Both the position numbers and the translations under genes were made by a program. From Microthrixaceae bacterium (GTDB lineage Bacteria; Actinomycetota; Acidimicrobiia; Acidimicrobiales; Microtrichaceae), in assembly GCA_019694615.1 (NCBI GenBank), contig JAIBBP010000264.1:958-64957 (forward strand): DNA of 64,000 nt, in the 5' to 3' direction. Under the pieces are notes generated by a model. It saw only the letters and a list, made by a program, of their open reading frames with translations, was not told the origin of the DNA and did no database searches. Shown piece after piece: positions 37,301-53,600 of the stretch (position 1 is the first letter of the stretch; each line of letters begins with the position of its first letter).

Positions 37301-37375
37301 CGGGATCCGTAAGAGTTCCGTGTGCAGAGGTGCCCTTCACCGCATCGCTGCGCTGCGACGTTTAGGTTCCCAGCT

Positions 37376-38245
37376 ATGCCAACACCGCGATGGCCCTGGT
37401 GGCACCAGACCGATGGCCCGGATGACTACCGCATCAGAGAGTTGCTGCGCGCAGTATGGGATCTGCACGCGCTCTACGGCCAGCACACCTGGCTTTGGAG
37501 GGGACAGCCGAACTACACGCACGATCTCACGGCCGGCATACACACACGAGTAGCTGCAGGCGGCCTCGCGAACGAGTGCGTCGTTGAGTGCACGACTGAC
37601 CTGATCGGTGCGGCGCGAGATGCTCGACTCGACCTGCACGAAGATGCCCGACTACCGGACCTCGCACTGTTGGCGATGCTGCAGCACCACGGTGCGGCAA
37701 CGCCGCTCCTAGACGTTTCACTCGATCCGCTCGTGGCGTTGTACATGGCCGTCGTCAGCCCGAACCCAGCAGATGACGACAACGACGGAGTGCTATTCGC
37801 AATCCGCCGCCCGCAGTCGACGTTGATGGCGTTCGACAGCGGGCCCTTCAACGAGGTCTACAACCAGTTGCCAGACGATGCCGCCGTGCTCTACACCGCC
37901 CCTGATGTGAGCGAGCGACTGCGGATTCAGCGCGGCCACTTCTTGTTGGCAAAGGTGGCGGACAAGTTTCGGACCACCCTCCCCCTCACGATCGACAACC
38001 CGAGTCAGGGCCTCGCCAACGCGTGGATCTACAAGCTGATGGCGGCGCGGGGAGTTCAGGGACAGCCGGCAGTTACTTCCGACGTCGCCGTGTTCCGGGT
38101 GACGGCGAAGTTCAAGTCAGCCCTCCGCGGGTGGCTTGAGGCGCGGTCAGGCCTCACACCTGCCTTCGTGCTGCCGACCGCCTGGCATCGTCCACACCTC
38201 GATGCCTTCTGCTCGGCTCACGGTCGTGGTGCCACTTGGCCGTAG
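37376..38245 (+). CDS. FRG-domain protein
   Basis: LWRGQ and LAMLQHHGAATPLLDVSLDPLVALYMAV match the FRG-domain signature (FRGQ ... QHYGxPTxLLDxT). Confidence 0.7.
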   Translation: MPTPRWPWWHQTDGPDDYRIRELLRAVWDLHALYGQHTWLWRGQPNYTHDLTAGIHTRVAAGGLANECVVECTTDLIGAARDARLDLHEDARLPDLALLAMLQHHGAATPLLDVSLDPLVALYMAVVSPNPADDDNDGVLFAIRRPQSTLMAFDSGPFNEVYNQLPDDAAVLYTAPDVSERLRIQRGHFLLAKVADKFRTTLPLTIDNPSQGLANAWIYKLMAARGVQGQPAVTSDVAVFRVTAKFKSALRGWLEARSGLTPAFVLPTAWHRPHLDAFCSAHGRGATWP

Positions 38246-38252: not shown

Positions 38253-41200
38253 TCACATCGAAGCCCTGAGCTCGATCCGCAACTGTTCGATGGCATCGGC
38301 CGGATCACCGAGCTTGGCTTGGACGAGAGCGTCGGTGTGTTCTTTGTAGACCTTCTCGGCTCCGACGCGGTCGTCGGCGGCGAAGTGCGCCCGCATGAGC
38401 GACTCGACCACCCCGCTGTTGAGCGGGATCGCATGGACAATGCGGCGAAGCATGGAGATCGCTTCCGCGGGTTCGCCGAGGTCGAGGTGCATGGCGGCAC
38501 ACGCCTGCGCGACCCCCGCGACTCGTTGCTCCCAGGTCGTCGCGTAGTGCTCGAAGTCGACCCAGCCGTAGGAGTTCCGAGCGGCGTTCGAGTAGGTGAA
38601 CGGTTTGCCGGTGACCAGGTCGAGCGCGGCGCGGTAGTGAACGATCGCCTCAGCCGGTTCAAGGTTGGCGGCACGGTGGACGTGCCAGTCGAAGACCTCG
38701 AGGTCGGTTCGTAGGCGCGGTCCGGCGACATAGGTGCCCTTGCGGTTGGCCGGTAGGTGCTGGGACCCGATCGCTGCGCGAGCCTCGGTCATGGTGTCGT
38801 GGAGTCGCTTGATGTGGGAGGCCCCGTCGGAGCCGAACCAACACGCCTCCTCGAGGCGCTCGGTGCTGACAGATCGCTTCAGTGCGATGTAGGCCACGAC
38901 CGCTGTCGCCTTCGGCTTGACGGGTCGGTCGCCATCGACGGCGACGTCGCCGAGCAGTCGAACGAGCACGTCGAAGTCCGGCGGTGAGTCGTCGTGCTCC
39001 TCATCGGCGTCGTCGCTGGTGGCTTTGTGCGCAGATGTCGTGGAGCCGTTCGACGACACGAGGCTTTCGTACTCGCCGAGCAACTCCTCCATCACGAGTT
39101 GTTCTTCGGGGCTGTCAGCAGCGACGACGATCCGGCTGAGGTCGGCGAGCTCGTCGCCGTCGAGGACTTGGGGTGTGCAGGCGAGGTCGACGGAGTCGAA
39201 GTTGAGCGTGTCTGGCTCGCACCGCAGGTTCGCCACGGCCGCGTCGAAGTCGCCGACGACCACCACAGCAACCGCTGAGGGCTGGCACGAGCGCAGCTCG
39301 TCGGCCAGTTCCGGGGGAGGTGGCCGGTCGGCCACGATGGCGATAGGGACGAGTGCGTCGTGGTCCGGGTCATGTCCGCGGCCGACGAAGGCGTTCGCCC
39401 AGTCGGAGTCCGCCAACGCGTCATGCGATTGTCTGGCCCATGCCCGGACGTCCTCGGCGATGCCGTCCCAGGAGTCGACCACGGTGAGGTGCTCCAGGAC
39501 CTTCGCGTCCTCGTTCACGACTTCGCCGATGCCGATGACCCGCAGGGTCTCAGCGAGGGGACTGAGCGTCAGCTCCGTGAGGATGGAGCGCGCGAGGTCC
39601 TCAGCGGTCGCCCGGTCGCCGGTCAAGGCGGTGAGTCCGTCAGCTTCGAGGTCGAGGTACATCTGCGCGTCATCTTCGGGTTGGCCGACGGTCACCAGGA
39701 GCGGCGCGGGGGTCAGCGGCCCCTCATACTGGTCGTCTGGGTCTGGAGGCTCGGCGAGGCTCCAGACGGTGCCATCGTCGGAGCTGACCCAGCCGGAGGG
39801 TGCGTTGGTGTCGGGCTGGTCGATGAGGACTTCGAGGCTGTCGGCGGCGTGGCGGACCATGCGGGGCCGTCTGTCGGAGGCAGCTGTGGCGAGAGCGGCG
39901 GCGAGCCGACCGAGCGCTCCTTGTAGATCGTCGATGCGCTCCTCGTCGGCCTGGGCGACGATCGCCTGGTGCAGCTCGCGTCGATCGAGCTGTGTGCGGC
40001 CGGGGAGTTGGCCTTCGTGGTTCTCGATGTAGTGGCGGCGGCGGCGGTCGATGAGGCGTTTGAGCCCGACGGCGAGCGCGATGCTCGTGAGCCCTCCGAG
40101 CGCTACCGCGATCGGCAGGGTGTCAGACGACTCCCGATCGTCCGTGTCGTCGGCCGCGGCCGCGGCCGGTGTCGCCGTGGTCGGCGACACTGTCGGAGTC
40201 GACGTCGGCGCAGCGGTGGTCGGTGTCGGGGTCGTCGTGGATGAGGTGGGCGGCTCTGGTGCCTGCGCTTCGGGTTCCGCTTCTATGGGCAGTTCGACGG
40301 GGACCGGGGTCTCCTCGGCTTCAGGTGGGGCGAGTGGTTCGTGGCCCGTGGGCGGAAGGTCGATGACCTGGCCGGGAAGGATCAGGCTGGGGTTGCCGGG
40401 TTGGACGTAGCGGTCCTGGTTGGTGTCGATGACCTCTTGCCAGTAGGGGGCTACTTCTGCGTCGGTCGCGTCTCGGCCGAGGTCGTCCTCGAGTCGGTCC
40501 TCGGAGATGTCCCAGAGGTTGTCGCCTCGCTCCACCACGATGCTCGAGCGTTCCGTGGCCGCCGATGTTGGCTGGCCAGGATCTGCCACCGGGTCCGGTG
40601 ACGCGGGTTCGCCGGTCGCGTCGGCGGGCAACAGGAGGACCCAGCCGGTGTGGAGGGTGTCGTCTCCGGCGGTGATGACACTCCCGTCGGGAAGGACGCG
40701 TCCAGCGTTGAGGTCGAGGATCTCCTGCCATCGGAACCCGTCGCCGAGCGTGCGTTCAGCGATGGCCCAGTAGCTGTCGTGGCGCTGCACGGTGACGGTC
40801 GGATGTCCGGTACCCGGTGTGGGCGCTGGCGTGTCGACTACGTGTCCGATGAGCTGGATCTGGTGTCCGTCGACGCTGTTCAGGAACGGGGACTGCGTGT
40901 GGACGGCGGCGTCGACCATCGCTTCGGCGACGACCGGTATCGGTTGGGGTGCAGAGGCGTGGGCGCGGACTGGCTGCACGGTGGAAGCGATCATCAGCAC
41001 ACCGGCAACGAGTCGGGCAGCGGTGATCTGGAAGCCGGGAACGACTGGCAGGCGGATCGCCTGGCGTCCTCGGGCCACGGCGAGTACCTCGACCGCGAGC
41101 GCGAGGGCGAGCTGCGCCCAGGCGAGCCATGCGATGACGGCGAGGGTGTTGACGACGACCTGGTCGCTCACGCCGGTGCGGGCAGCGCTTTCCAAGGAGT

Positions 41201-41336
41201 CGACGCTCGGGAGGCTGGCGGGGAGCGGCCAGCCCACGAGGGTTGCCAGCAGGACGGGCACGCCGACGAGCAGGAAGAGGGTTGCGGCCAGCGAGGTGAT
41301 GCCTCGTAGGAGCCGAGCGGATCGTCGGCCGGTCAT
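38253..41336 (-). CDS. large membrane protein with LysM-like repeats and C-terminal BTAD/TPR-like domain
   Basis: N-terminal TM helices, two LysM-like blocks (HDSYWAIAERTLGDG ... LLLP and VERGDNLWDISE ... LPGQVIDLP), a Thr/Pro linker, a further TM segment, and a C-terminal SARP-type BTAD-like helical region. Confidence 0.7.
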   Translation of the reverse strand: MTGRRSARLLRGITSLAATLFLLVGVPVLLATLVGWPLPASLPSVDSLESAARTGVSDQVVVNTLAVIAWLAWAQLALALAVEVLAVARGRQAIRLPVVPGFQITAARLVAGVLMIASTVQPVRAHASAPQPIPVVAEAMVDAAVHTQSPFLNSVDGHQIQLIGHVVDTPAPTPGTGHPTVTVQRHDSYWAIAERTLGDGFRWQEILDLNAGRVLPDGSVITAGDDTLHTGWVLLLPADATGEPASPDPVADPGQPTSAATERSSIVVERGDNLWDISEDRLEDDLGRDATDAEVAPYWQEVIDTNQDRYVQPGNPSLILPGQVIDLPPTGHEPLAPPEAEETPVPVELPIEAEPEAQAPEPPTSSTTTPTPTTAAPTSTPTVSPTTATPAAAAADDTDDRESSDTLPIAVALGGLTSIALAVGLKRLIDRRRRHYIENHEGQLPGRTQLDRRELHQAIVAQADEERIDDLQGALGRLAAALATAASDRRPRMVRHAADSLEVLIDQPDTNAPSGWVSSDDGTVWSLAEPPDPDDQYEGPLTPAPLLVTVGQPEDDAQMYLDLEADGLTALTGDRATAEDLARSILTELTLSPLAETLRVIGIGEVVNEDAKVLEHLTVVDSWDGIAEDVRAWARQSHDALADSDWANAFVGRGHDPDHDALVPIAIVADRPPPPELADELRSCQPSAVAVVVVGDFDAAVANLRCEPDTLNFDSVDLACTPQVLDGDELADLSRIVVAADSPEEQLVMEELLGEYESLVSSNGSTTSAHKATSDDADEEHDDSPPDFDVLVRLLGDVAVDGDRPVKPKATAVVAYIALKRSVSTERLEEACWFGSDGASHIKRLHDTMTEARAAIGSQHLPANRKGTYVAGPRLRTDLEVFDWHVHRAANLEPAEAIVHYRAALDLVTGKPFTYSNAARNSYGWVDFEHYATTWEQRVAGVAQACAAMHLDLGEPAEAISMLRRIVHAIPLNSGVVESLMRAHFAADDRVGAEKVYKEHTDALVQAKLGDPADAIEQLRIELRASM

Positions 41337-41731
41337 GGTTGGGCCTCGTCGACGGCGGTGGCGGTCTCGCGAACGACGATGGTCCGGTCTGCGCCGGGGA
41401 TGATCCGCATGGGTTGGACGCGGGTGACCGTCACGGTGATCGACGCGTCGGTGACGGTTGCGGTTCCGGTGGCGCCGACGCGCTGGAGGTAGGCGACCGC
41501 AGCGGCTTCGGCGGCGACGGGATCAAGTCGTGGTTCGTTCGCGGAGCGGAGGTGGTCGAGGTCGATCTGCTGGGCACCAGCTCGCGCAGCTCGCTCGGCG
41601 TCGTTGCGAGCGGCGTTGTGTGCAGCGATGACCTGGCCGCCGTCGTAGGCCATACCTGCGACCAGGACGAGTGCAGTGGCGACGACCGCGACGAAGGCGG
41701 TGATGCTTCCTCGCTCGTCGCGGGGGTTCAC
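41333..41731 (-). CDS. TadE/TadG-like pseudopilin
   Basis: N-terminal RDERGSITAFVAVVATALVLV prepilin-like segment. GTGA overlap with the upstream gene. Confidence 0.7.
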   Translation of the reverse strand: MNPRDERGSITAFVAVVATALVLVAGMAYDGGQVIAAHNAARNDAERAARAGAQQIDLDHLRSANEPRLDPVAAEAAAVAYLQRVGATGTATVTDASITVTVTRVQPMRIIPGADRTIVVRETATAVDEAQP

Positions 41732-42153
41732 GATCCGCTCCGGTAGGTGTCGATGACCTCGGTGGCCGTGGCGGTGAAGGTGCGTCGTCCGGGAACGCCG
41801 AGCAGCGTGACGTCGGCCATTGAGGCTTCGCAGGCGACGGTGACGGTGACGGTGCCGCCTGGGGCGAAGTCCGTGGTGTCGACGGTGGTGGTGAGGGTGA
41901 GGCAGGGCACGCCGGCGGCGGCGAGGTTGGCGGTAGCGGACGCTTGTGCGTCGTCGGTGGCGTCGGCGGGGTGTTGGCGGAGGGATGCGGCGCGGGCGGC
42001 GTCGGACGCGGCGCGTTCGACGTTGCCGTCGGCCTCGGAGACCTTGCCCGCGTAGACCACGAGGAGCACGAGGAACAGCAGAGCGGGTGCGATGACTGCG
42101 ACCTCGACAGCGATCGATCCTCGTTCGTCGCGGAGTCGTCCTCGCAGGGTCAT
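41728..42153 (-). CDS. TadE-like pseudopilin
   Basis: N-terminal RDERGSIAVEVAVIAPALLFLVLL. Confidence 0.75.
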   Translation of the reverse strand: MTLRGRLRDERGSIAVEVAVIAPALLFLVLLVVYAGKVSEADGNVERAASDAARAASLRQHPADATDDAQASATANLAAAGVPCLTLTTTVDTTDFAPGGTVTVTVACEASMADVTLLGVPGRRTFTATATEVIDTYRSGS

Positions 42154-42536
42154 CGTTCTGGCTCGGGGATGAAGCGTTCGACCGGGGCGGTGCTGCGGGC
42201 GGTGACCGCCCACTCAAAGCCAGGGACGAGCTGGGGTGCGTCACCGTGGACTTCGACGGTGACCGCGGTTGGCTCGCGGGACACGGTGATGGTGACGTTG
42301 TCGAGGTTGCCTGACTGCGCGAGGTACGACGACGCGGCGTCCTCGCCGTCGCGGGCGGTGCCCGACGAGACCTGGGCGGCGTCGACGGCCTCGGCCGCGG
42401 CGGCGTTGGCGACCTGCTTGGCATGCCACCACAGCCCGTACTGGACGATGAGCATGATCCAGAACAGGACGACCGGGAACAAGATGGCGACCTGGATAGT
42501 CGTCATCCCTCGTTCGTCACGCGCCCTGTGGCCCAT
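42150..42536 (-). CDS. TadE-like pseudopilin
   Basis: N-terminal RDERGMTTIQVAILFPVVLF. Confidence 0.75.
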   Translation of the reverse strand: MGHRARDERGMTTIQVAILFPVVLFWIMLIVQYGLWWHAKQVANAAAAEAVDAAQVSSGTARDGEDAASSYLAQSGNLDNVTITVSREPTAVTVEVHGDAPQLVPGFEWAVTARSTAPVERFIPEPER

Positions 42537-42542
42537 GGGGGC

Positions 42543-42752
42543 TCAGCCGCCGGGCTGCTCGGGTGTCGGGATGTTGTCGGCGTTGCCCTTCGCGGCGTTG
42601 TAGATGATGCCGAGCACGACGATGGCCGCGCCGACGAGGAGGAAGGTGATGACGGCGACCTCGGTGGTCGTCATCCCTCGTTCGTCGTGCGGGTCGATGC
42701 CGAGCCTCGCGCAGCAGTAGGCGAAGAGGATTCTGGGGTCGGGTACGGGCAT
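42543..42752 (-). CDS. flp: Flp-type prepilin
   Basis: 69 aa with leader ...HDERG followed by MTTTEVAVITFLLVGAAIVVLGII (Gly cleavage site, Glu at +5, hydrophobic helix). Confidence 0.7.
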   Translation of the reverse strand: MPVPDPRILFAYCCARLGIDPHDERGMTTTEVAVITFLLVGAAIVVLGIIYNAAKGNADNIPTPEQPGG

Positions 42753-42777
42753 GGTGGCCTCCTTGTGTTGGCTCCGT

Positions 42778-43689
42778 TCAGGGCTGGGGTCCGCTGACCG
42801 AGGTGATCTGGACGACTGCCGGGTAGGCGATGAACACGAGGAACCCGAACAGCAAGACGGCCACCGGGACCGTCATGCGCTCGGTGGCCGCTTCCGCGGC
42901 TGCTTCGGTTTCGGCCACTTGGTGACCTCGGAGGGTGTCGGCCTTCGCGGCGAGGGAGGCCCGAATGCGTGCGCCGTGGGATCCGGCGAGCGACACGCTG
43001 GCGGCGAGTTCGGCGAGTTCGTTGATGCCGAGGCGCGCGTCGAGCTGGGCGAACGTGTCCCATGGAGACTGGCCGGTGAGCCGGGCGCGTCGCAGCTCCG
43101 CGCGGATGGTCTGGTAGCCCCAACCATCCCCGGCGTCCGCGGCGGCGTGCAGCGCTGTCTCGATGCCCGCTCCTCCGGCGAGCAGCACGTTCACGAGGTC
43201 CAGGTAGGAGGACAGGGTGTGGCGGAAGGCTCGCCTGCGCTTGTCGGCTTCGTCACGCAGCAACATGTCAGGCAGGAGGAACCCGGCGACGGCGGTGACC
43301 AGGGAGAAGATGGCGATGAGTCCGAGGGGAGCAGGGATCCCCATGACCACCAGGGCAGCGGCGGCGAGGTTGGGGACGAGGAGTCCGGCGACGGCTCCGA
43401 GGAGCTTGTCGAACGCGTGCCGTTCCGGTGTGCGCCCGACCAGCTCGAGTTCTTGGTGGTGGCGTTCGGTGTCGTAGCCGAGCGATTCGACCAGGCGTCG
43501 TGCCGTGCTGCCGATCCGGTCGAACTCGTCGCGCGTTGTCGGTGCCGCCGTGTCGATGGCGATGCCAGGCCGAGCGAGTCCGGCGAGGACCGCGTCGATG
43601 CTCGGAGGCCGGGGGGCGAGCGCTCGCCACGTGAGCAACACGCCGAGCCCGACACCGGCGCCGAGCAGGACCATGACCACGGCCGTCAT
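42778..43689 (-). CDS. tadC: Tad platform protein TadC (T2SS-F family)
   Basis: Polytopic protein with T2SSF-like helices. Overlaps tadB. Confidence 0.8.
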   Translation of the reverse strand: MTAVVMVLLGAGVGLGVLLTWRALAPRPPSIDAVLAGLARPGIAIDTAAPTTRDEFDRIGSTARRLVESLGYDTERHHQELELVGRTPERHAFDKLLGAVAGLLVPNLAAAALVVMGIPAPLGLIAIFSLVTAVAGFLLPDMLLRDEADKRRRAFRHTLSSYLDLVNVLLAGGAGIETALHAAADAGDGWGYQTIRAELRRARLTGQSPWDTFAQLDARLGINELAELAASVSLAGSHGARIRASLAAKADTLRGHQVAETEAAAEAATERMTVPVAVLLFGFLVFIAYPAVVQITSVSGPQP

Positions 43690-44549
43690 GTCTCTGCTCC
43701 GATGCTGGTGGGCCCTCCGGCCCGTGCGGTGAACCGTTCGGGCAGCTCGATGTCGGCCATGCGGGTGAGGAGCCAGCCGCCGGCAGCGAAGATGCCACCG
43801 ACGATCGCCAGCATGACTTGGCCGCCAGCGCTGTCGTAGACGGTGAGGTAGTCGCGGTTGGCGATGGCGAGGAACACCACGGCGGCGATGACGACGCCGA
43901 CGATCACCTTCGTCGCGGTGCGGACGCGAGTCCGACCGACCTCCACTCGGATGCGCATCCGTGCGTCTCCTCGGGTGGCCTCGGCGAGGCGGGACAGAAG
44001 CCCGGAGAGATCAGCGGCTTCCATGCGGGATGCGATCACGAGGGCCGCGACGACAAGGTCGCCGGAGGGGTGGTCGAGATCCTCGCCGAAGGCGACGAGT
44101 GCCTCGGGGAGTCGTTCGTGGTCGAGGCGTCTCACCATCGTGCGTACCTCGCTGGAGATCGGTGGTGGCGCGACAGGGGCGGTGGCGACGATCGCCTCTT
44201 CGAGGCCGGACGCGGCGACGATCGAGTCGCGGATCATCTCGGTCCACGAGGCGATGGCCTCGGTGCGGTCGATGGCCTGCTGTCGAGCGGCCTTGCCGCC
44301 GAGGATTCCAGGCAGGACGAGGACGGCTACGGCGGCCAGGATCCCGCCGACGAGCCACCCGGTCGCGGCCATCGCCAGAAGCGCCGCCACGGCCGCAACC
44401 GTGACCTTCGGCAGAAGCGAGCTGGAGCGCACGCGCTGGACATAGCTCGACGGTGCGTCGAAGAGTCGGCGACCGGTGAGGCCAGCGAGGACCAAGAGCA
44501 GCCCCAGGGCTACGCCTGCGGCGAGGGCTGCGAAGACGAGTGTGCTCAT
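43686..44549 (-). CDS. tadB: Tad platform protein TadB (T2SS-F family)
   Basis: Start trimmed to MSTLVFAAL (ATGA overlap with the tadA stop). T2SSF-like topology. Confidence 0.8.
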   Translation of the reverse strand: MSTLVFAALAAGVALGLLLVLAGLTGRRLFDAPSSYVQRVRSSSLLPKVTVAAVAALLAMAATGWLVGGILAAVAVLVLPGILGGKAARQQAIDRTEAIASWTEMIRDSIVAASGLEEAIVATAPVAPPPISSEVRTMVRRLDHERLPEALVAFGEDLDHPSGDLVVAALVIASRMEAADLSGLLSRLAEATRGDARMRIRVEVGRTRVRTATKVIVGVVIAAVVFLAIANRDYLTVYDSAGGQVMLAIVGGIFAAGGWLLTRMADIELPERFTARAGGPTSIGAET

Positions 44550-45898
44550 CGCCACCACCCCTGCGCGGCGGCGTGGGCGGTCGCGTCGAAGCCGTGCACC
44601 TCGAGCTGCGCGGCGAACTCCGGTGTGGGCGGCGCGGCCGGGACACCCGATCCGGATGCGTCTGGTCGCCACAGTTCGTTGGAGACGACCTGGCCACCCT
44701 CGACGGCGCCGACGACCTGACGCACGCTGGTCACGCGGCGCTCGCCGTTGACCCAACCGAGGTGCACGATCAGATCGACGGCGTTCGCTACCAGCAGGTT
44801 GGTGACATCGGGGACCAGTCGCTCGGGGGTCATGGCCGCATACATGGCGAGGCGTCCGAACACGCCCTTGGATGAGTCAGCGTGGATCGAACACATCGAT
44901 CCGTCGTTGCCCTGGCTCATGGCGAGGAGCATCGGGAGGACCTCGGCGCCGCGAACCTCGCCGACGATGACCCGTTGCGGGTCCATGCGCAGCGCCGAGC
45001 GGACGAGCTCGGCGAGGCTGAAGGACCCGACGCCTTCGGTGTTGGCTTCACGGGCTTCGAGCGTCTCGTGGTCGGGGTGGAGGTCCTCGAAGCGCTCGAG
45101 TCCGATCTCCAAGGAGTCCTCGACTGTGATGAGGCGCTCGTCGGCTGGGATCTCGTTGATCAGGCACCGCAAGGTCGTGGTCTTCCCGGTGCCGGTTCCG
45201 CCGGCCACGATGATGTTGGCCCGAGCCCGCACCGCAGCAGACAGGAAGCTGGCCGTCAGGTCGTCGCACACGCCGAGCTCGACGAGTTGGGACACGCGGT
45301 GGATGTCGAAGTCGTGGCGGCGGATCGTCACCGTCGGGCGACCCGACACCGCCATGAGGGCATGAAGGCGATCACCGTTCGGGAGCTGCAGGTTCAGCTC
45401 CGGGTGCGCGTGATCCCAGCGACGCTCGCTGCGACCGATGCGCCGCGCCGCGGTGGAGATCAGCTCGACGAGATCCTCGTCGGAGTCCGCCACGGCGGGC
45501 CCGCGGACCTTCGTGCCGTCGCGCAGGTTGAGCCAGACCCGCAGCGCGCCCGAGATGTGGATGTCCCGGATGTCTGGGTCGTCGAGCAGTGGTTGGAGGC
45601 GGGCGAGCCCGTGGATGCGGTCCAGGACAGCCGCGGTGACCTTCGCTTCGGTGGCCTCGTCGAGAGGCACGCGCCCGTCCGAGTACGCGGACGCTGCCAA
45701 CTTGCGAAGTTCGTCGGTCACCAACTTGCGAGCCAGCGCACGTTCATCGGCTGGAGAGAACCGCCCCCGCCCAGCCTCCTCGTGCGCCACATGGGCCGTG
45801 GTCAGTGCCTCGCCAACGCGGTGGTGCAGGTCGGCAACCAGCGCAGGATCGATCCCGTCGCGCTGCCACGCCCCCGAGCCGTTCAGTGCCGTGGTCAT
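44546..45898 (-). CDS. tadA: Tad secretion ATPase TadA/CpaF
   Basis: Walker A GGTGTGKTT, Asp box ERLITVEDSLE, Walker B VIVGEVRG, His box. Confidence 0.95.
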   Translation of the reverse strand: MTTALNGSGAWQRDGIDPALVADLHHRVGEALTTAHVAHEEAGRGRFSPADERALARKLVTDELRKLAASAYSDGRVPLDEATEAKVTAAVLDRIHGLARLQPLLDDPDIRDIHISGALRVWLNLRDGTKVRGPAVADSDEDLVELISTAARRIGRSERRWDHAHPELNLQLPNGDRLHALMAVSGRPTVTIRRHDFDIHRVSQLVELGVCDDLTASFLSAAVRARANIIVAGGTGTGKTTTLRCLINEIPADERLITVEDSLEIGLERFEDLHPDHETLEAREANTEGVGSFSLAELVRSALRMDPQRVIVGEVRGAEVLPMLLAMSQGNDGSMCSIHADSSKGVFGRLAMYAAMTPERLVPDVTNLLVANAVDLIVHLGWVNGERRVTSVRQVVGAVEGGQVVSNELWRPDASGSGVPAAPPTPEFAAQLEVHGFDATAHAAAQGWWR

Positions 45899-46605
45899 GA
45901 CGCCGCCACCGCTGTCGTCGGCTCAAGCAGCACCGAACTCAGCGCAACTCCGAGGGCACCCACCGCACGAGCGAGCTGTGAACGGGCCAGATGGGAGCGA
46001 GAGCCGCCCACCCGCAGCACCTCGGCGGCATCGGGGTCGTTGGGCAGCTGACCGATCACCGAAACCCCAACGGCCCGCTCGACATCTTCCACCCCGTAGG
46101 GGCCGTCGCCGACGAGCACGACGGCCACCCGACCCCGGACCGCCTGGCGCAGTGTCGGCACGAGATGGGTCAACGCGACGAGCTGATCGGCGACCGGGTT
46201 CACGAACACCGCCAGGAGATCGGAGGCGGCGACGATCGGTACCGGTGAGCGGAGACGTCCAGCGTCTACGATCGCGACTCCGTCAGCCGCAACGAGCTTG
46301 TGAGTGATCCGCTCTCCCGCGGTCCGCCACACCGACGTGCTCGCAGCGGGGGCATCGGGACCCACCAGCACGGGGACGCCACCGGCATCCTGCGCGTGTG
46401 CTCGCCAACCGCCGTCAGCGTCGGGCCCGTCGGCCGCGAACGTCGTCAGGCCAGGTTCACGGCCGAGCCCGTATCGCACCGCGAGAACCCCGCCGTCGAG
46501 GTCAGCCTCGACCACCAGGGCATCGGTGAAGGTCGACGCGAGCAGGATCGCGGTGGTCGTCACACCGGGTGCGCCCCGGACCGAAGCCAAGCTGATGACC
46601 TTCAT
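45895..46605 (-). CDS. TadZ/CpaE-like degenerate ParA/MinD-fold protein
   Basis: N-terminal VISLASVRGAPGVTTTA replaces a canonical deviant Walker A. Position and operon coupling match TadZ. Confidence 0.55.
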   Translation of the reverse strand: MKVISLASVRGAPGVTTTAILLASTFTDALVVEADLDGGVLAVRYGLGREPGLTTFAADGPDADGGWRAHAQDAGGVPVLVGPDAPAASTSVWRTAGERITHKLVAADGVAIVDAGRLRSPVPIVAASDLLAVFVNPVADQLVALTHLVPTLRQAVRGRVAVVLVGDGPYGVEDVERAVGVSVIGQLPNDPDAAEVLRVGGSRSHLARSQLARAVGALGVALSSVLLEPTTAVAAS

Positions 46606-47273
46606 GGCGAGACCAGCACCAACCTCAGCCCACCAGCACTCGCCGCGGCCGCGACCGCCTCAGCGTCAGCCTCGGTTGCGAGTACCGACACCAAGAGCCG
46701 GTCACTGGCCAGCTCATCGACGGCGAACACGGTCGCATCTCGGGCGATGACCGCAGGATCCGCCTCGAGCTCGGCGACGTCGGCCGAGCGAACGACGTTG
46801 ACCCGATCGCCCGGGGCCAGGCCACGTGCCGGGTACGCACCAGGGTCGAGCGAGAGGCCGACCACGCCGTCGCCGTCCTGGACCGTTGCAGCATCGGCGA
46901 TCACCGAGGTCGTGAGGAGCGTGCCCTCGGCCAGGTCGACCAGCGCCACGCGACCCACCACTCGGTCGAGCTGGGAGCCGTCGAGCCGAGCCAACGCATC
47001 GTCGCTCGACACGTACGCCACCTTCACGTCGTTCGCGTCGATCACCTCGCCCCGCTCAACGCTCGACACCAAGACCAATGCAGGAACCTTCTCGACAGCG
47101 CTCAAGTGCCAGAGCACCGCGCCCAGCGCGAACACGGCCATGACCAACACGCCGACGACAAGCTCAGGCACTCGCACTCGCCTACCGGGCGGGCGAACGT
47201 CAACGCTGCGCCGAGCACCTTGGCCGTTGGACGACGGCGCATCGGGCCGAGTCGCGGTTCGAGGAGCGGCCAC
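46602..47273 (-). CDS. CpaB/RcpC-like SAF-domain pilus assembly protein
   Basis: N-terminal TM anchor followed by a SAF-like block VLVSSVERGEVIDANDVKVAYV. Confidence 0.65.
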   Translation of the reverse strand: MAAPRTATRPDAPSSNGQGARRSVDVRPPGRRVRVPELVVGVLVMAVFALGAVLWHLSAVEKVPALVLVSSVERGEVIDANDVKVAYVSSDDALARLDGSQLDRVVGRVALVDLAEGTLLTTSVIADAATVQDGDGVVGLSLDPGAYPARGLAPGDRVNVVRSADVAELEADPAVIARDATVFAVDELASDRLLVSVLATEADAEAVAAAASAGGLRLVLVSP

Positions 47274-47275
47274 TG

Positions 47276-48151
47276 CTACCGGCCTCCCCGCGTCCCGATC
47301 GCTTGGATCTCACCGACCTCGACATCGAGCGTCGACGAGCGCGTGATCGCCGGGAGCGCGCCGCCACCGGCGGCGTTCGACGTCCACGACACCTCGAGCG
47401 TCACCGTCGCCTCCAGGTTGAAGGTGCCACCCGGCCGCGTCGCTGACGAGCTGCGGTAGGTGTGGGTGCAAGACGACGCGCCCTCCGACGAGCCAGGTCG
47501 CCACGGGGTGCCCGGACCGCGACACGACACCGACCCGCCGTCGCCGAGTTCCCAAGTCGTAGCGACCGGTGTCGCTCGCACCGTGGACCAAACACGACCG
47601 GTGTTGGCTGTCGCTTCGTAGGTCTGCCACCACGTCGAGTCCAGCCACAGCCAGGTCGGCACCTGGACGTACAGGCGCCCGTTCTCCGACGGGCTCGTGC
47701 GGATCGCCGGTGGCGCGATCTGAACCGAGGCGAGCGCGTCGAGCGCGAGCTGGTGGGGATCGACCAACCCACCTTCGGGGATGAGGAAGAAGCCGTCGAC
47801 CGCTACGGCTCCGACTCCGGGGCACCACCGTTCCAACCATCGGCCGGTCGCCGAGTGTTGGGTCTCAAGTGTGTCGACGTCGTAGATGCCGAACTCGAAG
47901 TCATCTTCGATCACCACGTGCCACTCGCAGGGGTCCTCTGAGCCCGATCCGCCACCGCCCGACCCTCCGCCACCACCAGACCCGCCTTCCTCGGCGACTG
48001 CGGTCGGATCTCCGTCAGGGTCGACAAACGCGCCACCGTCGCCGTCCGGTCGTTCGCCGGCTCCGGCCTGACCCGCCGAGACGACCACGATTGAGAGCGC
48101 TGTGAGTAGCGCGACTACGAGGCGTGTGCGCATCCCGCGACTCCTTCCCAC
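47276..48151 (-). CDS. secreted hypothetical protein of the Tad operon
   Basis: Signal peptide LVVALLTALSIVVVSAGQAGA, a Gly/Ser linker and a Cys-containing beta-rich domain. Confidence 0.5.
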   Translation of the reverse strand: MGRSRGMRTRLVVALLTALSIVVVSAGQAGAGERPDGDGGAFVDPDGDPTAVAEEGGSGGGGGSGGGGSGSEDPCEWHVVIEDDFEFGIYDVDTLETQHSATGRWLERWCPGVGAVAVDGFFLIPEGGLVDPHQLALDALASVQIAPPAIRTSPSENGRLYVQVPTWLWLDSTWWQTYEATANTGRVWSTVRATPVATTWELGDGGSVSCRGPGTPWRPGSSEGASSCTHTYRSSSATRPGGTFNLEATVTLEVSWTSNAAGGGALPAITRSSTLDVEVGEIQAIGTRGGR

Positions 48152-48783
48152 TGTTGAATGAGGCGGGCAGAGGACACTCGCCAGGCACCGTCGACGTGCT
48201 GCAGCTCTCCTCTGATGTTCTGTGTGTAGACCTCGCCGTCAACGACCTCGCCTGTGTTCCGGCGGTAGATCACCCCGTCCGTGACAACGCACTCCTGCAC
48301 CACGGCGTGATCGCCTTCCAGATCGATGACGTCGACGCGCTGGATGTCGCTCGGGTTCGCCGCAGGCCGGAACGCGAGACCGTTCTCGAGGTTGCTGCGT
48401 GTCTCCGCGATCACCGCGTCCAATTGGGCACCAGTGGCGAAGTCCCGGAGCGCTGGGTCATCCGGGTTTGGGGTGCCACTGTTGGCGGCGAAGCGAGCGT
48501 CCCAGTAGCCGATATAGCGGGCGACGATCTCTTCTTCGGCGGTCTGGCCGTTCGGCGTCGACGCCGAGGTGGTGGAAGCGGTCGACTCGGGGGTCGATGT
48601 CGAGCTCGTCGTGTCGGTGGTGGTCGACGATCCCCTCGGCTCGGTCGTACTGGTCGAGGTTGTCGCTGCGTCGTCGGAGCATCCGACCACGCCGAGACCG
48701 ATGAGGATGGCGAGCGCGATCGTCCAGCCGCTGACATGCCGCCGGTGTGCTGCTGCTCGATCGATCCGATCGGACCTGACCAT
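48115..48783 (-). CDS. lipoprotein of the Tad operon
   Basis: Lipobox LGVVGC after a TM-like leader, followed by a Ser/Thr-rich linker. Start trimmed to MVRSD. Confidence 0.55.
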   Translation of the reverse strand: MVRSDRIDRAAAHRRHVSGWTIALAILIGLGVVGCSDDAATTSTSTTEPRGSSTTTDTTSSTSTPESTASTTSASTPNGQTAEEEIVARYIGYWDARFAANSGTPNPDDPALRDFATGAQLDAVIAETRSNLENGLAFRPAANPSDIQRVDVIDLEGDHAVVQECVVTDGVIYRRNTGEVVDGEVYTQNIRGELQHVDGAWRVSSARLIQQWEGVAGCAHAS

Positions 48784-49037
48784 GGTCACGCCTCCTCGTT
48801 CGGGACGACCCCCTTCCGGCATCGCTGAGTTGGGCACCCAGCGAATCCCGCAGTTCCACGTCGGCGCGACGATCGCACTGCGAGTCAGGTGGAGGAGGTC
48901 AGCCCCGTAACGGTCGGGCAGACGAGACCGGGCATCGACGAGTCGATGTCGCACACAACGGTAGCGAGCCTGTGTCGATCTTGCTCGACGAGCACGGGCA
49001 ACGCGCGGGAGTGACAGCGGCCGCATGGCGGGTCGGT

Positions 49038-49715
49038 TCAGCTCGCTAGGGGGAGTTCACGGAGGCGAGCCTCGGCGCGCCACCGGCGATGCCACAGCAC
49101 TTTGAGCGACACCTGCTGCTCGGCGGCGAGCTCGGCCATGGACTCTCCACCAACCCGGCTGCGCAGGATCGTCGCGAGGACCTCGTCGGATATCCCCGAC
49201 GAGGAGCTTGCGGTGGCGAGCTCTTCGAGGAAGGCGTGGCTGACGAACTGCTCCTCTGCGGAGGGCGCCTCTGTCGCCACACACGATCCGATCTGGCGCC
49301 TAGCCTTGTCCTGCTCGCGGCGGTAGCGCTTGCGGACGTCGAGCAGGACGTTGGCCGACACCGATCCGGGTCGGCTCGCGGGGTAGGTGCGGATGCGTTC
49401 CCATGCGAGCCTGACGATGTCGTCGATCGCGTCGTCGTCGCGCCCGACACGGTGGGCAAGGTTGCACAGACCGCCGAGCAGTCCTTGGAGCAGAGTTCGG
49501 GCCGCGAGATGATCAGCGGGCGCCAAGGCTGCGAGTGCCCGTCGGACCGCTGGCCCATCGTCGGGGTTGAAGCCGAGGTCGATCACGTCGTCGAGGTCTG
49601 CGGCTGACGTGAGCACTGGGTGGGTAGCCGACCAGCGCATCAGCGCTCGCCTTGCGGATGGAGAGCCGGCGATCGCCGACCACTCCCTGTTGAGGGATCG
49701 CAGGATCTCTGCCAT
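49038..49715 (-). CDS. sigma-70-family-like (ECF-like) factor
   Basis: AGGAGG 6 nt before the ATG. Region-2-like IVRLAWERIRTY and region-4 HTH ESMAELAAEQQVSLKVLWHRRWRAEARLREL. Confidence 0.55.
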   Translation of the reverse strand: MAEILRSLNREWSAIAGSPSARRALMRWSATHPVLTSAADLDDVIDLGFNPDDGPAVRRALAALAPADHLAARTLLQGLLGGLCNLAHRVGRDDDAIDDIVRLAWERIRTYPASRPGSVSANVLLDVRKRYRREQDKARRQIGSCVATEAPSAEEQFVSHAFLEELATASSSSGISDEVLATILRSRVGGESMAELAAEQQVSLKVLWHRRWRAEARLRELPLAS

Positions 49716-49760
49716 CGGAAGCCTCCTGGTGTCGTTGAGCACCAGCAGGGTCCGCGTGGC

Positions 49761-49855
49761 ACCTCCCGTGCGACCTCCCGTTCGACCTCCCGTTTCGAAG
49801 ATTTCTGGTCGGTTGCCTCCCGTCCGAGGGGTCCGGCCTCCCGTTCGACCTCCCG
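49761..49855 (+). repeat. iteron cluster 1: six copies of (A/G)CCTCCCG, mostly 12-bp phased
   Basis: Copies start at 49761, 49773, 49785, 49815, 49836 and 49848. Longer consensus CGACCTCCCGTT. Intergenic, between the sigma-like gene and 49917. Confidence 0.8.
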
Positions 49856-49895
49856 TCCACGGGATTTCGCTGCTGCCAACGCGCGCTATCGACCC

Positions 49896-49910
49896 CGCCG
49901 AGGGGCCTAC
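49896..49910 (+). promoter_or_regulatory. conserved motif CGCCGAGGGGCCTAC-N6-ATG (instance C)
   Basis: Ends 6 nt before the ATG at 49917. Confidence 0.45.
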
Positions 49911-49916
49911 GGGGGC

Positions 49917-50462
49917 ATGGAACGTGATCGGATACTGAGGTTCACCCCCGTCGACCACCCCGACGACCGGGTGCAACGTGTCGGCTTCGATCTGACCGAC
50001 CCCTACGTCGAGCAGTGCTGGTCGGCTGTCGTCGGGCCGAGCTCGACCTTGCTGCTCCGTCGGATGCCGGACCTGTGGGCCGTCAACTCGCCCCGCGAGA
50101 TCCAGGCCACTGAGCTGTCTCGTTCGCTCGGCCTCGGTCGCGGTGTGGGCGAGCGCAGCCGCCTCATGAGCACCATGAATCGGCTCGTCCAGTACCGGCT
50201 TGCCCGGCCAGCTCCGGACGGCGCCGGGCTGGAGGTCTTCCGCCAGGTCTCACCACTCACCCCCCATCAGCTCGACCGGGTGCCGCAGTTGACCCGCGAC
50301 ACCCACGAACGGCTCTTCGGCACCCACCTCGAGCAGATCGACGACCTGGCCCAGCACCAGGCGAGCGTCGCGTCGATCACGGCTCGTCTCGACCGCATCC
50401 AGAACAGTTCCGGCCGACCAACCAACGGGCTCGCGCCTCAGGGCAAGGCGCTCGGGCGATGA
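49917..50462 (+). CDS. hypothetical DNA-binding-like protein, paralog of 18424-18879
   Basis: Shares blocks with the 18424 protein. First gene of the relaxase operon, directly downstream of the iterons. Confidence 0.6.
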   Translation: MERDRILRFTPVDHPDDRVQRVGFDLTDPYVEQCWSAVVGPSSTLLLRRMPDLWAVNSPREIQATELSRSLGLGRGVGERSRLMSTMNRLVQYRLARPAPDGAGLEVFRQVSPLTPHQLDRVPQLTRDTHERLFGTHLEQIDDLAQHQASVASITARLDRIQNSSGRPTNGLAPQGKALGR

Positions 50463-50552
50463 GCTTCACTCGCCGGAACGGCTCTCCCGGAACACCCGTC
50501 GGCCCGGTCCCGTTCATCGGTGCCGAACAGCAGATCCGGCGCGCACACATTT

Positions 50553-50577
50553 GCAGGTTTCCCTCCGGGAAACCTGC
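50553..50577. promoter_or_regulatory. oriT candidate hairpin GCAGGTTTCCC-TCC-GGGAAACCTGC
   Basis: Perfect 11-bp inverted repeat 25 nt upstream of the relaxase GTG, followed by iteron-like GTCTCCCG at 50581-50588. Confidence 0.5.
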
Positions 50578-50601
50578 TGCGTCTCCCGTTGGCGGTCTCC
50601 G

Positions 50602-53600
50602 GTGAAGTTCACGGTCACTCCGCTGGGCGGAGGCCGGGGGGACGCTGCGCGTGTGGTGGACGCGATCGTGCGCTACCTCCAGCCGCCTCCGAAGGCCGCC
50701 CCGTCGAGCAGCACTCCAGCGCCGGACGCTGGTGGTCCCGAGCGGTACTACGCGGATCGCGGGGAGGAGCCGGGGCGGTGGCTCGGTCGCGCTGCTCACG
50801 GTGCCGGGCTCACGGGGGCGGTGCTGCGGCCGGACTTCGCATCGGTTCTGGCTGGTCGGGACCCTTACACCGACGAACGGCTCATCACTGCCCAGGGCTC
50901 TGCGGGGCGGCGACCGACGTTGGGTTCGGGCGCCCACACCAAGGTCGGAGCCGATGGGGAGCAGCTCTATGACGTGGCCGACGCTGCTGCGGCCCTCGGG
51001 TTGTCGCACCGGGAGGTCGAGCGGATGCTCGACGTCGGCACGGCGGTCGCTCTCGGCACCTTTACACAGGCCGTGGGTGTCCAAGCCACGCCGGGAGACG
51101 AGGCAGGACCTCCCGCGCGACCTCCCGACGCGTCTCCCGAATCGGTGGGACCTCCCGTTCCACCTCCCGCGCGACCTCCCGTTTGGTCTCCCGTTGGCGC
51201 TGTGACCAGGCAGTTCTGGCAGCCGGGAGGTTCCTACCTCGTGCCCTTGGTCGAAGGTGACGGGTCGCGGTGGGTGCGGGCCGGCGAGCTGGCCCGTTGC
51301 GCCCATGCCCGCGACGCGGGAATCGACCCCGGGGACATCCGATCGCTGGGAGCACCCGACGACCAGCTGAGCCTGGCCGAAGCCGCCCGGCTGGTCGGCC
51401 TCACCAAGCAGTACCTGCGCGGCCTCGCCCGCTACCACGAGAACTACCAGGTGGAGATCGAGCGATCCCTCGCGGCCGGGCGGCACCCGCGCCGGGCGTT
51501 CCTGGTCGCTCACCGTGGCACCAAGGGCCGGTGGTTGGTCACCCGTGAACACCTGGCCGAGTTCGTGGAACGGCGCCGCCCTCCGGCGGTGCGAGTCGGC
51601 TACGACCTGACCTTGACCACAGAGAAGTCCCTCGGCGTGCTCGCGCTCCTCGGCGACGCGACGACCCGTTCCGCGGTGCTGGGGTCGATCCAGGCCGGGA
51701 ACGACTGGGCGCTCGGCTGGCTCGAAGATCACGCCGCGGTCGGCCGGGTCGACGGCAAGCCAGTGACCGGTGAGGGGTGGATGGTGGCGTCCTTCCGGCA
51801 CCTCACCTCCCGCGCGCTCGACCCGTTCCCGCACCATCACAACGTGATCGCCAACACCGTCCGCCTCTCCGACGGCACCAACCGGGCGCTCGACGCCCGT
51901 GCCCTGTATCGCCACGCTCAGGCCGCCTCCGCGCTCGCGACCGCCGAGATGCGCCACCAGCTCACCAACGACCTCGGCGTGAGGTGGCGTCCGGGCCGCA
52001 AGTCCGGTTGGGAGATCGAGGGCATCACCAACCAAGTGGTCGGCGAATTCTCCAAGCGCCGCAACGAGATCGACGACGCCCTACGGGAGCTCGAAGAAGA
52101 GATCGGTCGAGGCGCGCATCCTGGCGAGGTCGAGCACATCGTGCTGCGAACGCGCCCGGCCAAGAACCACACGCCCGCGGATGACTTGATCGCTTCGTGG
52201 CGTGACCGCGCCGCCCGCCACGGCCTCACCCCCGACACGCTCGCCGACCTCTCCGGGCACGACACCCAGGCCCAGGCGGTTGATGAGGCGGCGTTGTTCG
52301 AGTCGCTCGCCGGGGCAGAGGGAATCTGCTCGGGTGGATCGGTCTTCTCGCGGTCCGAGGCACTCGTCGCCATGGCGAACCATCCCGTGCCTGGCGCCGA
52401 TGGCGAACAGGCGCAGCCGCTGCTGTGTGGCGCGTCTCGATTGATCGAGCTGACCGATCAGTTCCTCGCGTCGGAGCAGGTGGTCGCGCTCACCGACGCC
52501 GACGAACCGCTCTACACGACCGTGGAGATGCTCGGCGTGCAGGACCGCATCGCGGCCCGCTTCACCAAGGGACTTCATCGGGGCGCGCACCTCGTCCCCG
52601 ATGGCCACGTCGAGGCCGCGCTCGAACGGCACGCGCACCTCACCGGCGAACAGCGGCGGCTTGTCACGGAGTGGTGCCAACGCGGGCATCGCTTCCAAGC
52701 CGCCATCGGACGCGCCGGGGCTGGCAAGACCACAACCGTCGCCGCGTGCGCGGATGCGTGGACTGCCGCCGGCTACCGGGTCCTCGGTGCAGCCGTGAAG
52801 GGCGAAGCGACGCGGACCCTGGCCGCGGCGACCGGGATCGACTGCGAGACCGTCGCTTGGTATCTCGTCCACACCGATCCCCAGTCGTTGCCGCTGGACT
52901 CGCGGACGATCCTCGTCGTCGACGAAGCCTCCACGCTGTCGGACCGTGACCTCGACACCTTGATGGAGATGGCCGCGACCACCGGGGCGAGCCTCCGGCT
53001 GATCGGCGACCCAGCCCAGCACGGTGCCATCGCTGCGGGGGGCATGTTCCGCGTCCTTTGCGAGCGCCACGAACGCGACACCCCCGAGTTGGTGACCACC
53101 CACCGGCTCCAAGACCCCCACGACCGTGCGGCGGCCCAGGCACTGCGCGAGGGTCGGATCGACGAAGCGTTCGACCAGCTCGCTGCGGCCGGTCACCTCC
53201 ACATCGTCGCCGACGACCTCGCCATGTACCGCGAGGTGCTCGGCCGCTGGTGGGACGCCCACCGCGACGGGCTCGAGCATCCGATGGTCGACCGGCGCAA
53301 CAGCACCCGCCGCCAGCTCAACCGTCTCGCCCACCTCCTCCGACGCGTGAACGGCGAACTCGACGGCGACGAGATCACCGCCAGCGGAGACCGACACTTC
53401 GCCGTCGGCGACCGGATCACCGCCCGCGCCCCCAACCGCGACCTCCACGTCGACGGCGACCGGCACGCGTATGTCCGCAATGGTGCGCTCGGCACGATCG
53501 TCGCCGTGCGCCCCGACCGACGTGACCCAGCCGACGACACGCTGACCGTCGACTTCGACGGCATCGGCACGATCGACATCCCGAGGTCGTTCTTCGATCA

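Follow-up and report, generated by a model that had tools for sequence, protein, structure and literature searches.

The stretch of DNA analysed here, hereafter the window, comprises 64,000 nucleotides of a Microthrixaceae bacterium (class Acidimicrobiia; assembly GCA_019694615.1, contig JAIBBP010000264.1, positions 958 to 64,957), actinobacterial DNA with a G+C content of about 68%, in which an ICE (integrative and conjugative element) carries an operon for a Tad pilus. Twelve tightly packed minus-strand genes run from 48783 down to 38253 (Table 1), or thirteen if the gene for a sigma-like protein ahead of them is counted. At 8 of the 11 junctions the genes overlap, mostly by 4 nt and mostly as ATGA or GTGA, and the open reading frames (ORFs) are intact and translationally coupled. 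The original prediction had read a co-directional Tad operon of about twelve genes in an ICE from the sequence, and hidden Markov model (HMM) searches against Pfam and NCBIfam confirm it with some amendments: four genes start elsewhere than first placed (48783 for the lipoprotein, 48133 for the secreted protein, 44549 for TadB and 41731 for the TadG-like protein), and matches to T2SSE, T2SSF (for TadC), TadE and SAF lie above the profile cutoffs, whereas those of TadB and to RcpC fall below them and neither Flp_Fap for the prepilin nor CpaE for the TadZ analogue gave a match.

The predicted secretion ATPase, TadA, has a Walker A motif (GGTGTGKTT), a Walker B-like motif (VIVGEVR) and a His box (SIHA). 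TadB has several transmembrane (TM) segments, is encoded next to TadC and is 30-36% identical to its counterparts on the plasmids pNOCA01 and pTC1, and the CpaB-like protein is matched by RcpC (weakly) and by TIGR03177 CpaB (E=7e-9), both under their cutoffs yet with full-length coverage. For the TadZ analogue, a profile of 25 homologues matched MinD over the full length (1hyq, E=2.5e-7), as well as ParA and FleN. This search supports a MinD/ParA fold for the protein first called TadZ-like, which matches nothing in Pfam, has no receiver-like N-terminal domain and carries a degenerate Walker A motif (GAPGVTT) from which the lysines are lost. In the Flp-type prepilin candidate a processing motif (G↓MTTTEV, the arrow marking the predicted cleavage point) is followed by a hydrophobic helix, and DUF4244 scored weakly (17 bits, under the cutoff). 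All three minor-pilin matches lie above cutoffs, the two to PF07811 with E-values of 3e-11 and 1e-8, and the leader (R/H)DERG↓ common to the Flp candidate and the three minor pilins points to a single peptidase for all four. No A24 prepilin peptidase (TadV/CpaA) was found among the ~50 predicted proteins scanned between the att repeats of the element, nor in the equivalent slot of its relatives, so that a host TadV would be needed; the apparatus had been described as full-looking, and this enzyme is the one gap in it.

Three further proteins accompany the core. The last gene of the operon encodes a giant with three N-terminal TM segments, LysM repeats, a Pro/Thr-rich linker, a fourth TM segment and an acidic region that ends in a BTAD domain; hydropathy and composition suggest that the LysM repeats are extracellular and that the ~600-residue acidic tail with the terminal BTAD is cytoplasmic, a layout reminiscent of the FimV/HubP-type scaffolds of type IV pili. 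The lipoprotein encoded by the first gene is kept in relatives at 47-80% identity. The second gene encodes a secreted beta-rich protein, here called sec291, whose C-terminal domain (residues ~125-275) is confidently modelled as beta-rich and has a pair of conserved Cys and several Trp that are invariant. Compared with PDB folds this domain found none better than E=0.05, and a profile search for distant relatives of sec291 returned the same ICE family only. Homologues 27-28% identical occupy the equivalent place on pTC1 and pNOCA01, and 184 plasmids carry one, 146 of them from Streptomyces and some from Micrococcus; the PGAP name 'ATP/GTP-binding protein' given to plasmid homologues looks like a legacy misnomer. 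Judged from its predicted proteins, this is a true Tad operon and, for a monoderm cell, a near-complete one.

The element that carries it is a tRNA-integrating ICE of the type IV secretion system (T4SS) type, of ~53.5 kb. Its ends are marked by identical 59-nt repeats, one of which lies within an intact tRNA-Met gene that scores 66 bits in Rfam. Direct repeats at a tRNA 3' end, a tyrosine integrase, a TrwC/MOBF relaxase, VirD4 and VirB4, the criteria of Ghinet et al. (2011), are all present, as in the T4SS-type actinobacterial ICEs described before (PMC3218068, PMC3429521). The module on one side of the Tad block (29721-37300) comprises a Toprim primase, the VirB4 ATPase, an SCO6880-family protein, a VirB6-like protein, the hypothetical protein hyp240, DUF6112 and an M23+glucosaminidase wall hydrolase. 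Neither a pilin nor VirB8/TcpC was recognised among the scanned T4SS proteins of the ICE, and the T4SS is in this respect minimal. Gene calls in the DNA-processing module on the other side (49917-54235) match those in Iamia majanohamensis, and a methyltransferase-helicase of 1909 residues is also carried between the att repeats. Near-identical modules in hosts of different classes are an indirect pointer to a capacity of the ICE to excise and transfer itself. The split VirB4 pair (496 and 434 residues, 30789-33580) occurs on hundreds of actinobacterial plasmids too, and is related to the SCO6878-6881/cmd clusters of S. coelicolor, which have been studied for differentiation and not for conjugation.

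To place the Tad block among related elements we scanned for TadA in one genome per species, which gave 53 loci, and compared these by tblastn with 35 proteins of the window. In all loci with TadA of at least ~65% identity and enough flanking sequence, the full gene order and orientation are unchanged: M23 hydrolase, a variable slot, LysM giant, TadG, TadE, TadE, Flp, TadC, TadB, TadA, MinD-like protein, CpaB, sec291, lipoprotein and sigma-like gene, followed divergently by hyp49917, relaxase and HTH_17. The cultured Iamia majanohamensis, in which the ICE lies near CP116942.1:890-930 kb, has the same layout. Identities of TadA and relaxase co-vary across loci (Spearman 0.84, n=13, p=3e-4), and TadA is 71-97% identical in Microthrixaceae, Iamiaceae, Ilumatobacteraceae, Nocardioides, Gordonia, Actinomyces, Propionibacteriales, Egicoccus and a Chloroflexota bin, a degree of identity across such hosts that implies horizontal transfer of the whole unit. 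With VirB4 as the starting point we obtained 1061 homologues, the best 120 of which are all at least 79% identical, and both of the contexts that were opened (2/2) contain the Tad block. In the more distant Nitriliruptorales loci L028 and L031 (TadA 57-61%) the flanks hold hypothetical proteins, a transposase and a RES toxin only. One metagenome-assembled genome, Acidimicrobiia FR_1, contains three copies of the element (L019, L021, L033).

Within this layout, true cargo changes from one relative to the next in the slot that separates the LysM giant from the M23 hydrolase, a hot spot that we compared in L007, L009, L011, L012, L016, L019, L021, L033 and L067-L070. In the window it holds an FRG-domain gene (37322-38245, plus strand) seen in no relative; elsewhere it holds Hypoth_Ymh, Kelch, DUF2726, Gp49 or hydrolase and TetR genes, and in one relative a 7797-residue RHS/Laminin_G/PKD giant. 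We also considered whether the Tad block is an independent insertion or transposon, as a perfect 20-nt inverted repeat (36087-36106 and 49896-49915, 13.8 kb apart) brackets the M23, FRG, Tad and sigma-like genes. Its 17-nt core precedes VirD4 as well, and the copies sit at the starts of operons, in relatives too; the repeat is thus an operon-start leader and not an insertion scar, and no direct repeats flank the Tad block within the window. The original prediction had placed the block between the T4SS/hydrolase and DNA-processing modules, away from the cargo edge, and had named the lack of the block from related ICEs and flanking repeats of its own as signs to the contrary; relatives with enough flank keep the block, and the sole flanking repeat is the leader just described. 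Taken together, the shared gene order, the co-variation of TadA with the relaxase and the lack of insertion repeats support a backbone position, and on these comparisons the large and abundant MOBF/T4SS ICE family of Acidimicrobiia has the Tad block as one of its fixed modules.

The same type of cassette is found on actinobacterial plasmids. A tblastn comparison against plasmids led us to examine eight cassette plasmids from seven genera: pTC1 (Paenarthrobacter aurescens TC1), pNOCA01 (Nocardioides JS614), pKRAD01 (Kineococcus), pSTRVI01, a linear plasmid of S. albidoflavus, a Kitasatospora plasmid, Curtobacterium pC1b and a Microbacterium plasmid. The cassette order is that of the ICE, namely (lipoprotein), sec291, SAF protein, MinD-like protein, TadA, TadB, TadC, Flp, three minor pilins and LysM giant; sec291 and a terminal LysM giant are present in all eight, the giant always as the last gene. 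T4SS genes (VirB4, wall hydrolase, TcpC-like or coupling protein) lie within ~15 kb of the cassette in 8/8, and they are of two types, SCO6880/split-VirB4 on pTC1 and pNOCA01 and TcpC/large-VirB4 on the other six. Those of the first type resemble the ICE in their T4SS and also in carrying the giant methyltransferase-helicase, with identities to the ICE of 39% for TadA, 27-28% for sec291, 29-31% for the LysM giant and 28% (pTC1) for VirB4. The plasmids otherwise stand well apart from the tRNA-Met-integrating Acidimicrobiia element, with protein identities of only 23-49%, and several of their cassettes end with a prepilin peptidase, which is present in those of pKRAD01, Curtobacterium and Microbacterium and missing from the ICE. 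The plasmid pAO1 is conjugative by experiment; in a search for a link to it, pNOCA01 alone had a cassette close to that of pTC1, and pAO1 was not among the matches. We make no claim on pAO1.

By contrast, chromosomal Tad loci of Ilumatobacteraceae (TadA ~49%) have housekeeping neighbours and lack the lipoprotein, sec291, the MinD-like TadZ analogue, the LysM/BTAD giant and the sigma gene. What chromosomal actinobacterial Tad systems, those of Micrococcus luteus and Ilumatobacteraceae, have in common with the ICE is the core of CpaB, TadA, TadB, TadC, Flp, TadE and TadG; their surroundings differ, and the cassette-specific genes are missing. Among the loci compared, this type of cassette is specific to mobile elements and is repeatedly partnered with T4SSs.

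Directly upstream of the Tad operon and on the same strand, a sigma-like gene with an AGGAGG ribosome-binding site (RBS) and an ATG at 49715 diverges from an iteron region. Searches of its product by sequence (Pfam at E of 1 or below, phmmer against the PDB, and a profile against the PDB) returned nothing. Its AlphaFold2 (AF2) model (pLDDT 85) was compared by Foldseek, and the top ~30 PDB neighbours are essentially all extracytoplasmic function (ECF) sigma factors, for example SigH (6kop_F, E=8e-4); some databases call homologues sigma-24 or sigma-70 family. The fold search supports a predicted ECF-sigma-like regulator, in keeping with the sigma-like gene that had been proposed ahead of the operon and divergent from iterons.

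The intergenic region between this gene and the operon is conserved in an alignment of 15 loci. It contains a promoter-like pair, GAGCAA-17 nt-TACCGT, and a 5' leader in which RNAalifold predicts two hairpins, with compensatory changes at 10/17 pairs and an invariant loop TGACCGTTACGG; 3' of the hairpins, a CCTCC(T)C stretch is complementary to the RBS of the lipoprotein gene. The leader belongs to no Rfam family (an Rfam scan of the window yields tRNAs only), and it may be a new cis-regulatory RNA. A scan for sigma-70 promoter and terminator consensus sequences gave no signal above shuffled sequence. The operon-start leader described above has the form CGCCGAGGGGCCTACG(G/T)GGG and occurs at 26844-26860, 36087-36106 and 49896-49915, kept in relatives, each copy ending 5-6 nt ahead of a start codon: those of VirD4, of the DUF6112 gene (first of the T4SS operon) and of hyp49917 (first of the relaxase operon). 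Both iteron arrays are kept at the same places in close relatives, and the motif is absent from more distant ones; the second array falls within a ~190-residue insertion (with an HTH_17 match) that splits the TrwC domain. GACCTCC in the Tad leader resembles the iteron core over too short a stretch to carry weight.

Table 1. Features of the Tad block and of the element that carries it (positions in the window; aa, residues; a point marks features without strand).
Feature	Position	Strand	Remarks
att repeat	9531-9589	.	59-nt copy of tRNA-Met 3' part
VirD4 coupling protein	25003-26844		T4SS-DNA_transf
T4SS and wall-hydrolase module	29721-37300	.	flanks Tad block
VirB4 ATPase	30789-32093	-	434 aa
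SCO6880-family protein	32090-33580	-	496 aa; VirB4 N-terminal half; NCBIfam E=6e-65
M23+glucosaminidase wall hydrolase	36164-37300		
LysM-TM-BTAD giant	38253-41336	-	1027 aa; Pfam BTAD E=3e-11, LysM
TadG-like minor pilin	41333-41731	-	PF13400 E=2e-6
TadE minor pilin	41728-42153	-	PF07811
TadE minor pilin	42150-42536	-	PF07811
Flp-type prepilin candidate	42543-42752	-	69 aa; leader ...HDERG↓MTTTEVAVITFLLVG; strong RBS
TadC platform protein	42778-43689	-	T2SSF E=3e-9, 37.3 bits, over cutoff
TadB platform protein	43686-44549	-	T2SSF 22.8 bits, just below cutoff of 25.2
TadA/CpaF secretion ATPase	44546-45898	-	Pfam T2SSE (PF00437) E=1e-34, 120 bits, cutoff 24.9
TadZ analogue, MinD/ParA fold	45895-46605	-	homologue profile
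CpaB/RcpC-like SAF-domain protein	46602-47273	-	N-terminal TM anchor; Pfam SAF E=3.7e-7, above cutoff
sec291, secreted beta-rich protein	47276-48133	-	285 aa; signal peptide
Lipoprotein, first operon gene	48115-48783	-	222 aa; signal peptide; lipobox LGVVGC; Ser/Thr-rich linker
Promoter-like pair and 5' leader of Tad operon	48784-49037	-	intergenic; alignment of 15 loci
ECF-sigma-like regulator (predicted)	49038-49715	-	225 aa; AF2 model and Foldseek
Iteron array A	49757-49858	.	~6 copies of xxCCTCCCGTxx, period 12; between sigma-like gene and hyp49917
DNA-processing module	49917-54235	+	hyp49917 (181 aa), TrwC/MOBF relaxase-helicase, HTH_17
TrwC/MOBF relaxase-helicase	50551-53952		TrwC + AAA_30
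Second iteron array	51103-51196		xxCCTCCCGTxx, 12-nt period; inside relaxase ORF
Tyrosine integrase	58639-59868		Phage_integrase
att partner	63026-63084		within intact tRNA-Met gene 63028-63104, minus strand

Our preferred reading, to which we give a probability of roughly 0.45, is that of an ICE-borne Tad (type IVc) pilus operon, monoderm in type, which aids the formation or stabilisation of mating pairs. The invariant order of the block, the co-variation of TadA and relaxase, the 8/8 pairing on plasmids, the simpler type of chromosomal Tad and the intact, coupled ORFs together suggest such a role. In the mechanism that we envisage, an ECF-like sigma factor would be made from the iteron-bearing divergent region once the element is active, and the Tad operon would be transcribed, possibly under control of this factor, from its own conserved promoter through the structured leader. 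Because the ICE has no peptidase, a prepilin peptidase of the host would cleave Flp and the three minor pilins after DERG. TadA, TadB, TadC and the MinD-like TadZ analogue would then build a thin filament, which CpaB, the LysM-TM-BTAD scaffold, the lipoprotein and the secreted beta-rich protein would guide through the wall. The filament would bind neighbouring cells and draw or hold them together, after which the pilus-less T4SS (split VirB4, VirB6-like protein, VirD4 and wall hydrolase) would pass the relaxase-bound DNA. A pilus of this kind would aid transfer, above all in liquid or in flocs, and need not be essential to it.

Pili of the type IV family are known to assist conjugation in other bacteria: the thin pili of R64 (IncI1) and the type IVb pili of Pseudomonas aeruginosa PAPI-1 promote transfer, as shown by experiment, and Tad pili can retract. 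Like the ICE, R64 and PAPI-1 have a type IV-family pilus operon inside a conjugative element and separate from the T4SS. They differ from it in having type IVb PilS/PilV pilins with a shufflon, as opposed to Flp/Tad pilins of type IVc, and in residing in diderm cells with a secretin, and the transfer role that is experimental there is inferred here. The pilins of the ICE are of Flp/TadE type and the Pfam scan gave no PilS/PilV-type match; shufflon repeats were not specifically searched for.

Several observations weigh against a part in mating. Adhesion is the canonical role of Tad pili. Our literature search found no test of tad mutants in mating, and the Cutibacterium acnes literature reads plasmid tad as an adhesin or virulence factor (PMC5696575, PMC9119108). 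The prepilin peptidase is absent from the ICE, and individual copies of the block are altered: the closest relative, L001 (TadA 97%), has an additional co-directional ORF of 1413 residues, with no Pfam domain, in the gap between tadC and flp (13125-17366 of that locus, plus strand), and L019 has lost sec291, the lipoprotein and the sigma gene. The leader CGCCGAGGGGCCTACG common to the three transfer operons is absent from the Tad operon, which has a promoter-like site and leader of its own, and we found no cis-element common to the Tad and T4SS operons. The nearest T4SS cores, those of Streptomyces and Kitasatospora plasmids (VirB4 33-39% identical; order C40 peptidase, DUF6112, VirB6-like, SCO6880-family, VirB4, VirD4), have no adjacent Tad, and on some plasmids the Tad and T4SS modules are 65-75 kb apart, which together imply that this class of T4SS does not as a rule need Tad. 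The only relative without the Tad block, the plasmid unnamed1 of Iamia sp. SCSIO 61187 (L057, NZ_CP050949.1), has two IS3 copies in its place, and of the giant the BTAD end alone is left. VirB4 is broken there as well, in two unannotated pieces; this joint loss can be set on the side of a mating role, but with both systems damaged the case says little either way.

Much of this would fit a 'widespread colonisation island', an adhesion cargo that raises host fitness through attachment to surfaces or flocs and through biofilm and takes no direct part in DNA transfer; the history of the element family would then be all that its fixed position reflects. We regard this as the main rival, though less likely than a mating role. 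It would give Tad its usual function, the one assigned to the C. acnes plasmids (PMC5696575, PMC9119108), and it agrees with Bordeleau et al., who class such genes as cargo (PMC3429521), with the separate promoter and leader of an operon that lacks the transfer-operon motif, with a related Streptomyces T4SS that works without adjacent Tad, and with hosts that are floc-forming Microthrixaceae and Iamiaceae from sludge-type samples. Against it, the Tad block is invariable in a family whose true cargo varies in the adjacent slot, and it diverges together with the relaxase. Moreover, the sec291/LysM-giant cassette lies within ~15 kb of T4SS genes in 8/8 plasmids and beside two unrelated T4SS types, for which history alone is hard to invoke, and related hosts have a chromosomal Tad of another, simpler kind.

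A closer involvement in transfer than mating-pair stabilisation can also be imagined. A short Tad fibre anchored by the LysM-BTAD protein could be integral to the transfer channel, opening or spanning the wall or exporting the hydrolase, and so substitute for the missing VirB2/VirB5 pilus and VirB7-10 core. The minimal T4SS, in which no pilin or VirB8/TcpC was recognised, the position of the LysM giant and the wall hydrolase beside the cassette, and the analogy of Com and type II secretion pseudopili are consistent with such a wall-spanning pseudopilus, which we nevertheless consider quite improbable: Streptomyces elements have the same T4SS core without adjacent Tad, no regulatory motif is held in common, and a short fibre is indistinguishable from a long one with the present data. 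A broader version of the mating reading, that the Tad filament with its LysM-TM-BTAD scaffold and sec291 constitutes the missing conjugative pilus of monoderms, a 'conjugative Tad' subtype conserved on plasmids and ICEs of Actinomycetota, required for mating pairs to form efficiently with two types of T4SS, and controlled by an ECF sigma factor of the element and a novel structured RNA leader, seems to us doubtful; if true, these elements would contain a hybrid machine for transfer, part T4SS and part type IVc pilus. Less likely still than the pseudopilus is a competence pilus that takes up DNA for the host or a new recipient. The original prediction had rightly pointed to a link between Tad pili and DNA uptake in an actinobacterium: transformation of Micrococcus luteus requires Tad genes (PMC4322843), and sec291 homologues occur on Micrococcus plasmids. 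ComEA, ComEC and DprA were not found among the ICE proteins scanned, and the constant partners of the cassette, T4SS and relaxase, form an export machine. That the block is a decaying relic with no current function, as the altered copies in L001, L019 and the Iamia sp. plasmid might suggest, is hardly credible given that none of the 12 overlapping ORFs is disrupted, that conservation of TadA across classes reaches 72-97% and that compensatory changes keep up the structure of the leader.

A joint T4SS-Tad arrangement was first put forward for this window as a new architecture, which is not upheld: the eight plasmids pair the two systems, and so do published elements. Bordeleau, Ghinet and Burrus (2012, PMC3429521) placed 'LysM domain protein' and 'type II secretion system' genes among the cargo of actinobacterial T4SS ICEs; the papers of Ghinet (2011) and Bordeleau (2012), which report such genes within ICEs (PMC3218068, PMC3429521), treat Tad-type genes as auxiliary cargo, and contain no Acidimicrobiia elements, conserved position or cassette-specific genes. 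Davidsson et al. (2017, PMC5696575) described tad beside VirB4, TcpC and FtsK-like genes on linear plasmids of C. acnes, and raised, and left open, the question of a link between these pili and conjugation. One C. acnes tad plasmid is reported to be transferable (PMC9119108), and surface appendages and a TadE protein have been detected in this species (PMC5696575, PMC9119108). By their published description the C. acnes tad plasmids (pIMPLE-HL096PA1, p15.1.R1, pTP-CU411) resemble the ICE in being mobile and in having tad beside T4SS genes, and differ from it in being linear plasmids. We found no functional study of the Tad cassettes of the eight plasmids in the literature. What is new here is an ICE-form member, from Acidimicrobiia, of a pairing that was already visible on public plasmids and noted in print.

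Conjugation of the Gram-positive type is thought to use surface adhesins, not pili. One type of Tad cassette, with a LysM-BTAD giant and a conserved secreted protein, accompanies T4SS genes on many actinobacterial plasmids and also in an ICE family that is abundant among Acidimicrobiia of wastewater and soil. What had been a passing remark in the literature thereby becomes a concrete hypothesis that can be tested, and tractable hosts exist for it (Iamia majanohamensis, P. aurescens TC1, Nocardioides JS614 and C. acnes). Should the pilus promote transfer, it would be of consequence for gene flow in activated sludge and soil and for how resistance plasmids spread in Cutibacterium; otherwise the cassette would be a widely mobile adhesion module whose extra components would still have to be explained.

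Some other features of the element are minor. A tRNA-Ala called by ARAGORN at 24562-24647 (minus strand), within the ORF of the 1909-residue methyltransferase-helicase, lacks Rfam support and is probably a false positive. Two genes of defence type accompany the transfer genes, one with a Shedu SduA domain (27843-29108, minus strand) between VirD4 and the primase, inside the transfer backbone, and one for an AbiEii toxin (54290-55162, minus strand) adjoining the relaxase module. The left end of the ICE holds ~10 kb of catabolic cargo (9600-19100), comprising two short-chain dehydrogenase/reductases, a flavin monooxygenase, an alpha/beta hydrolase, a metal-dependent hydrolase and two TetR regulators.

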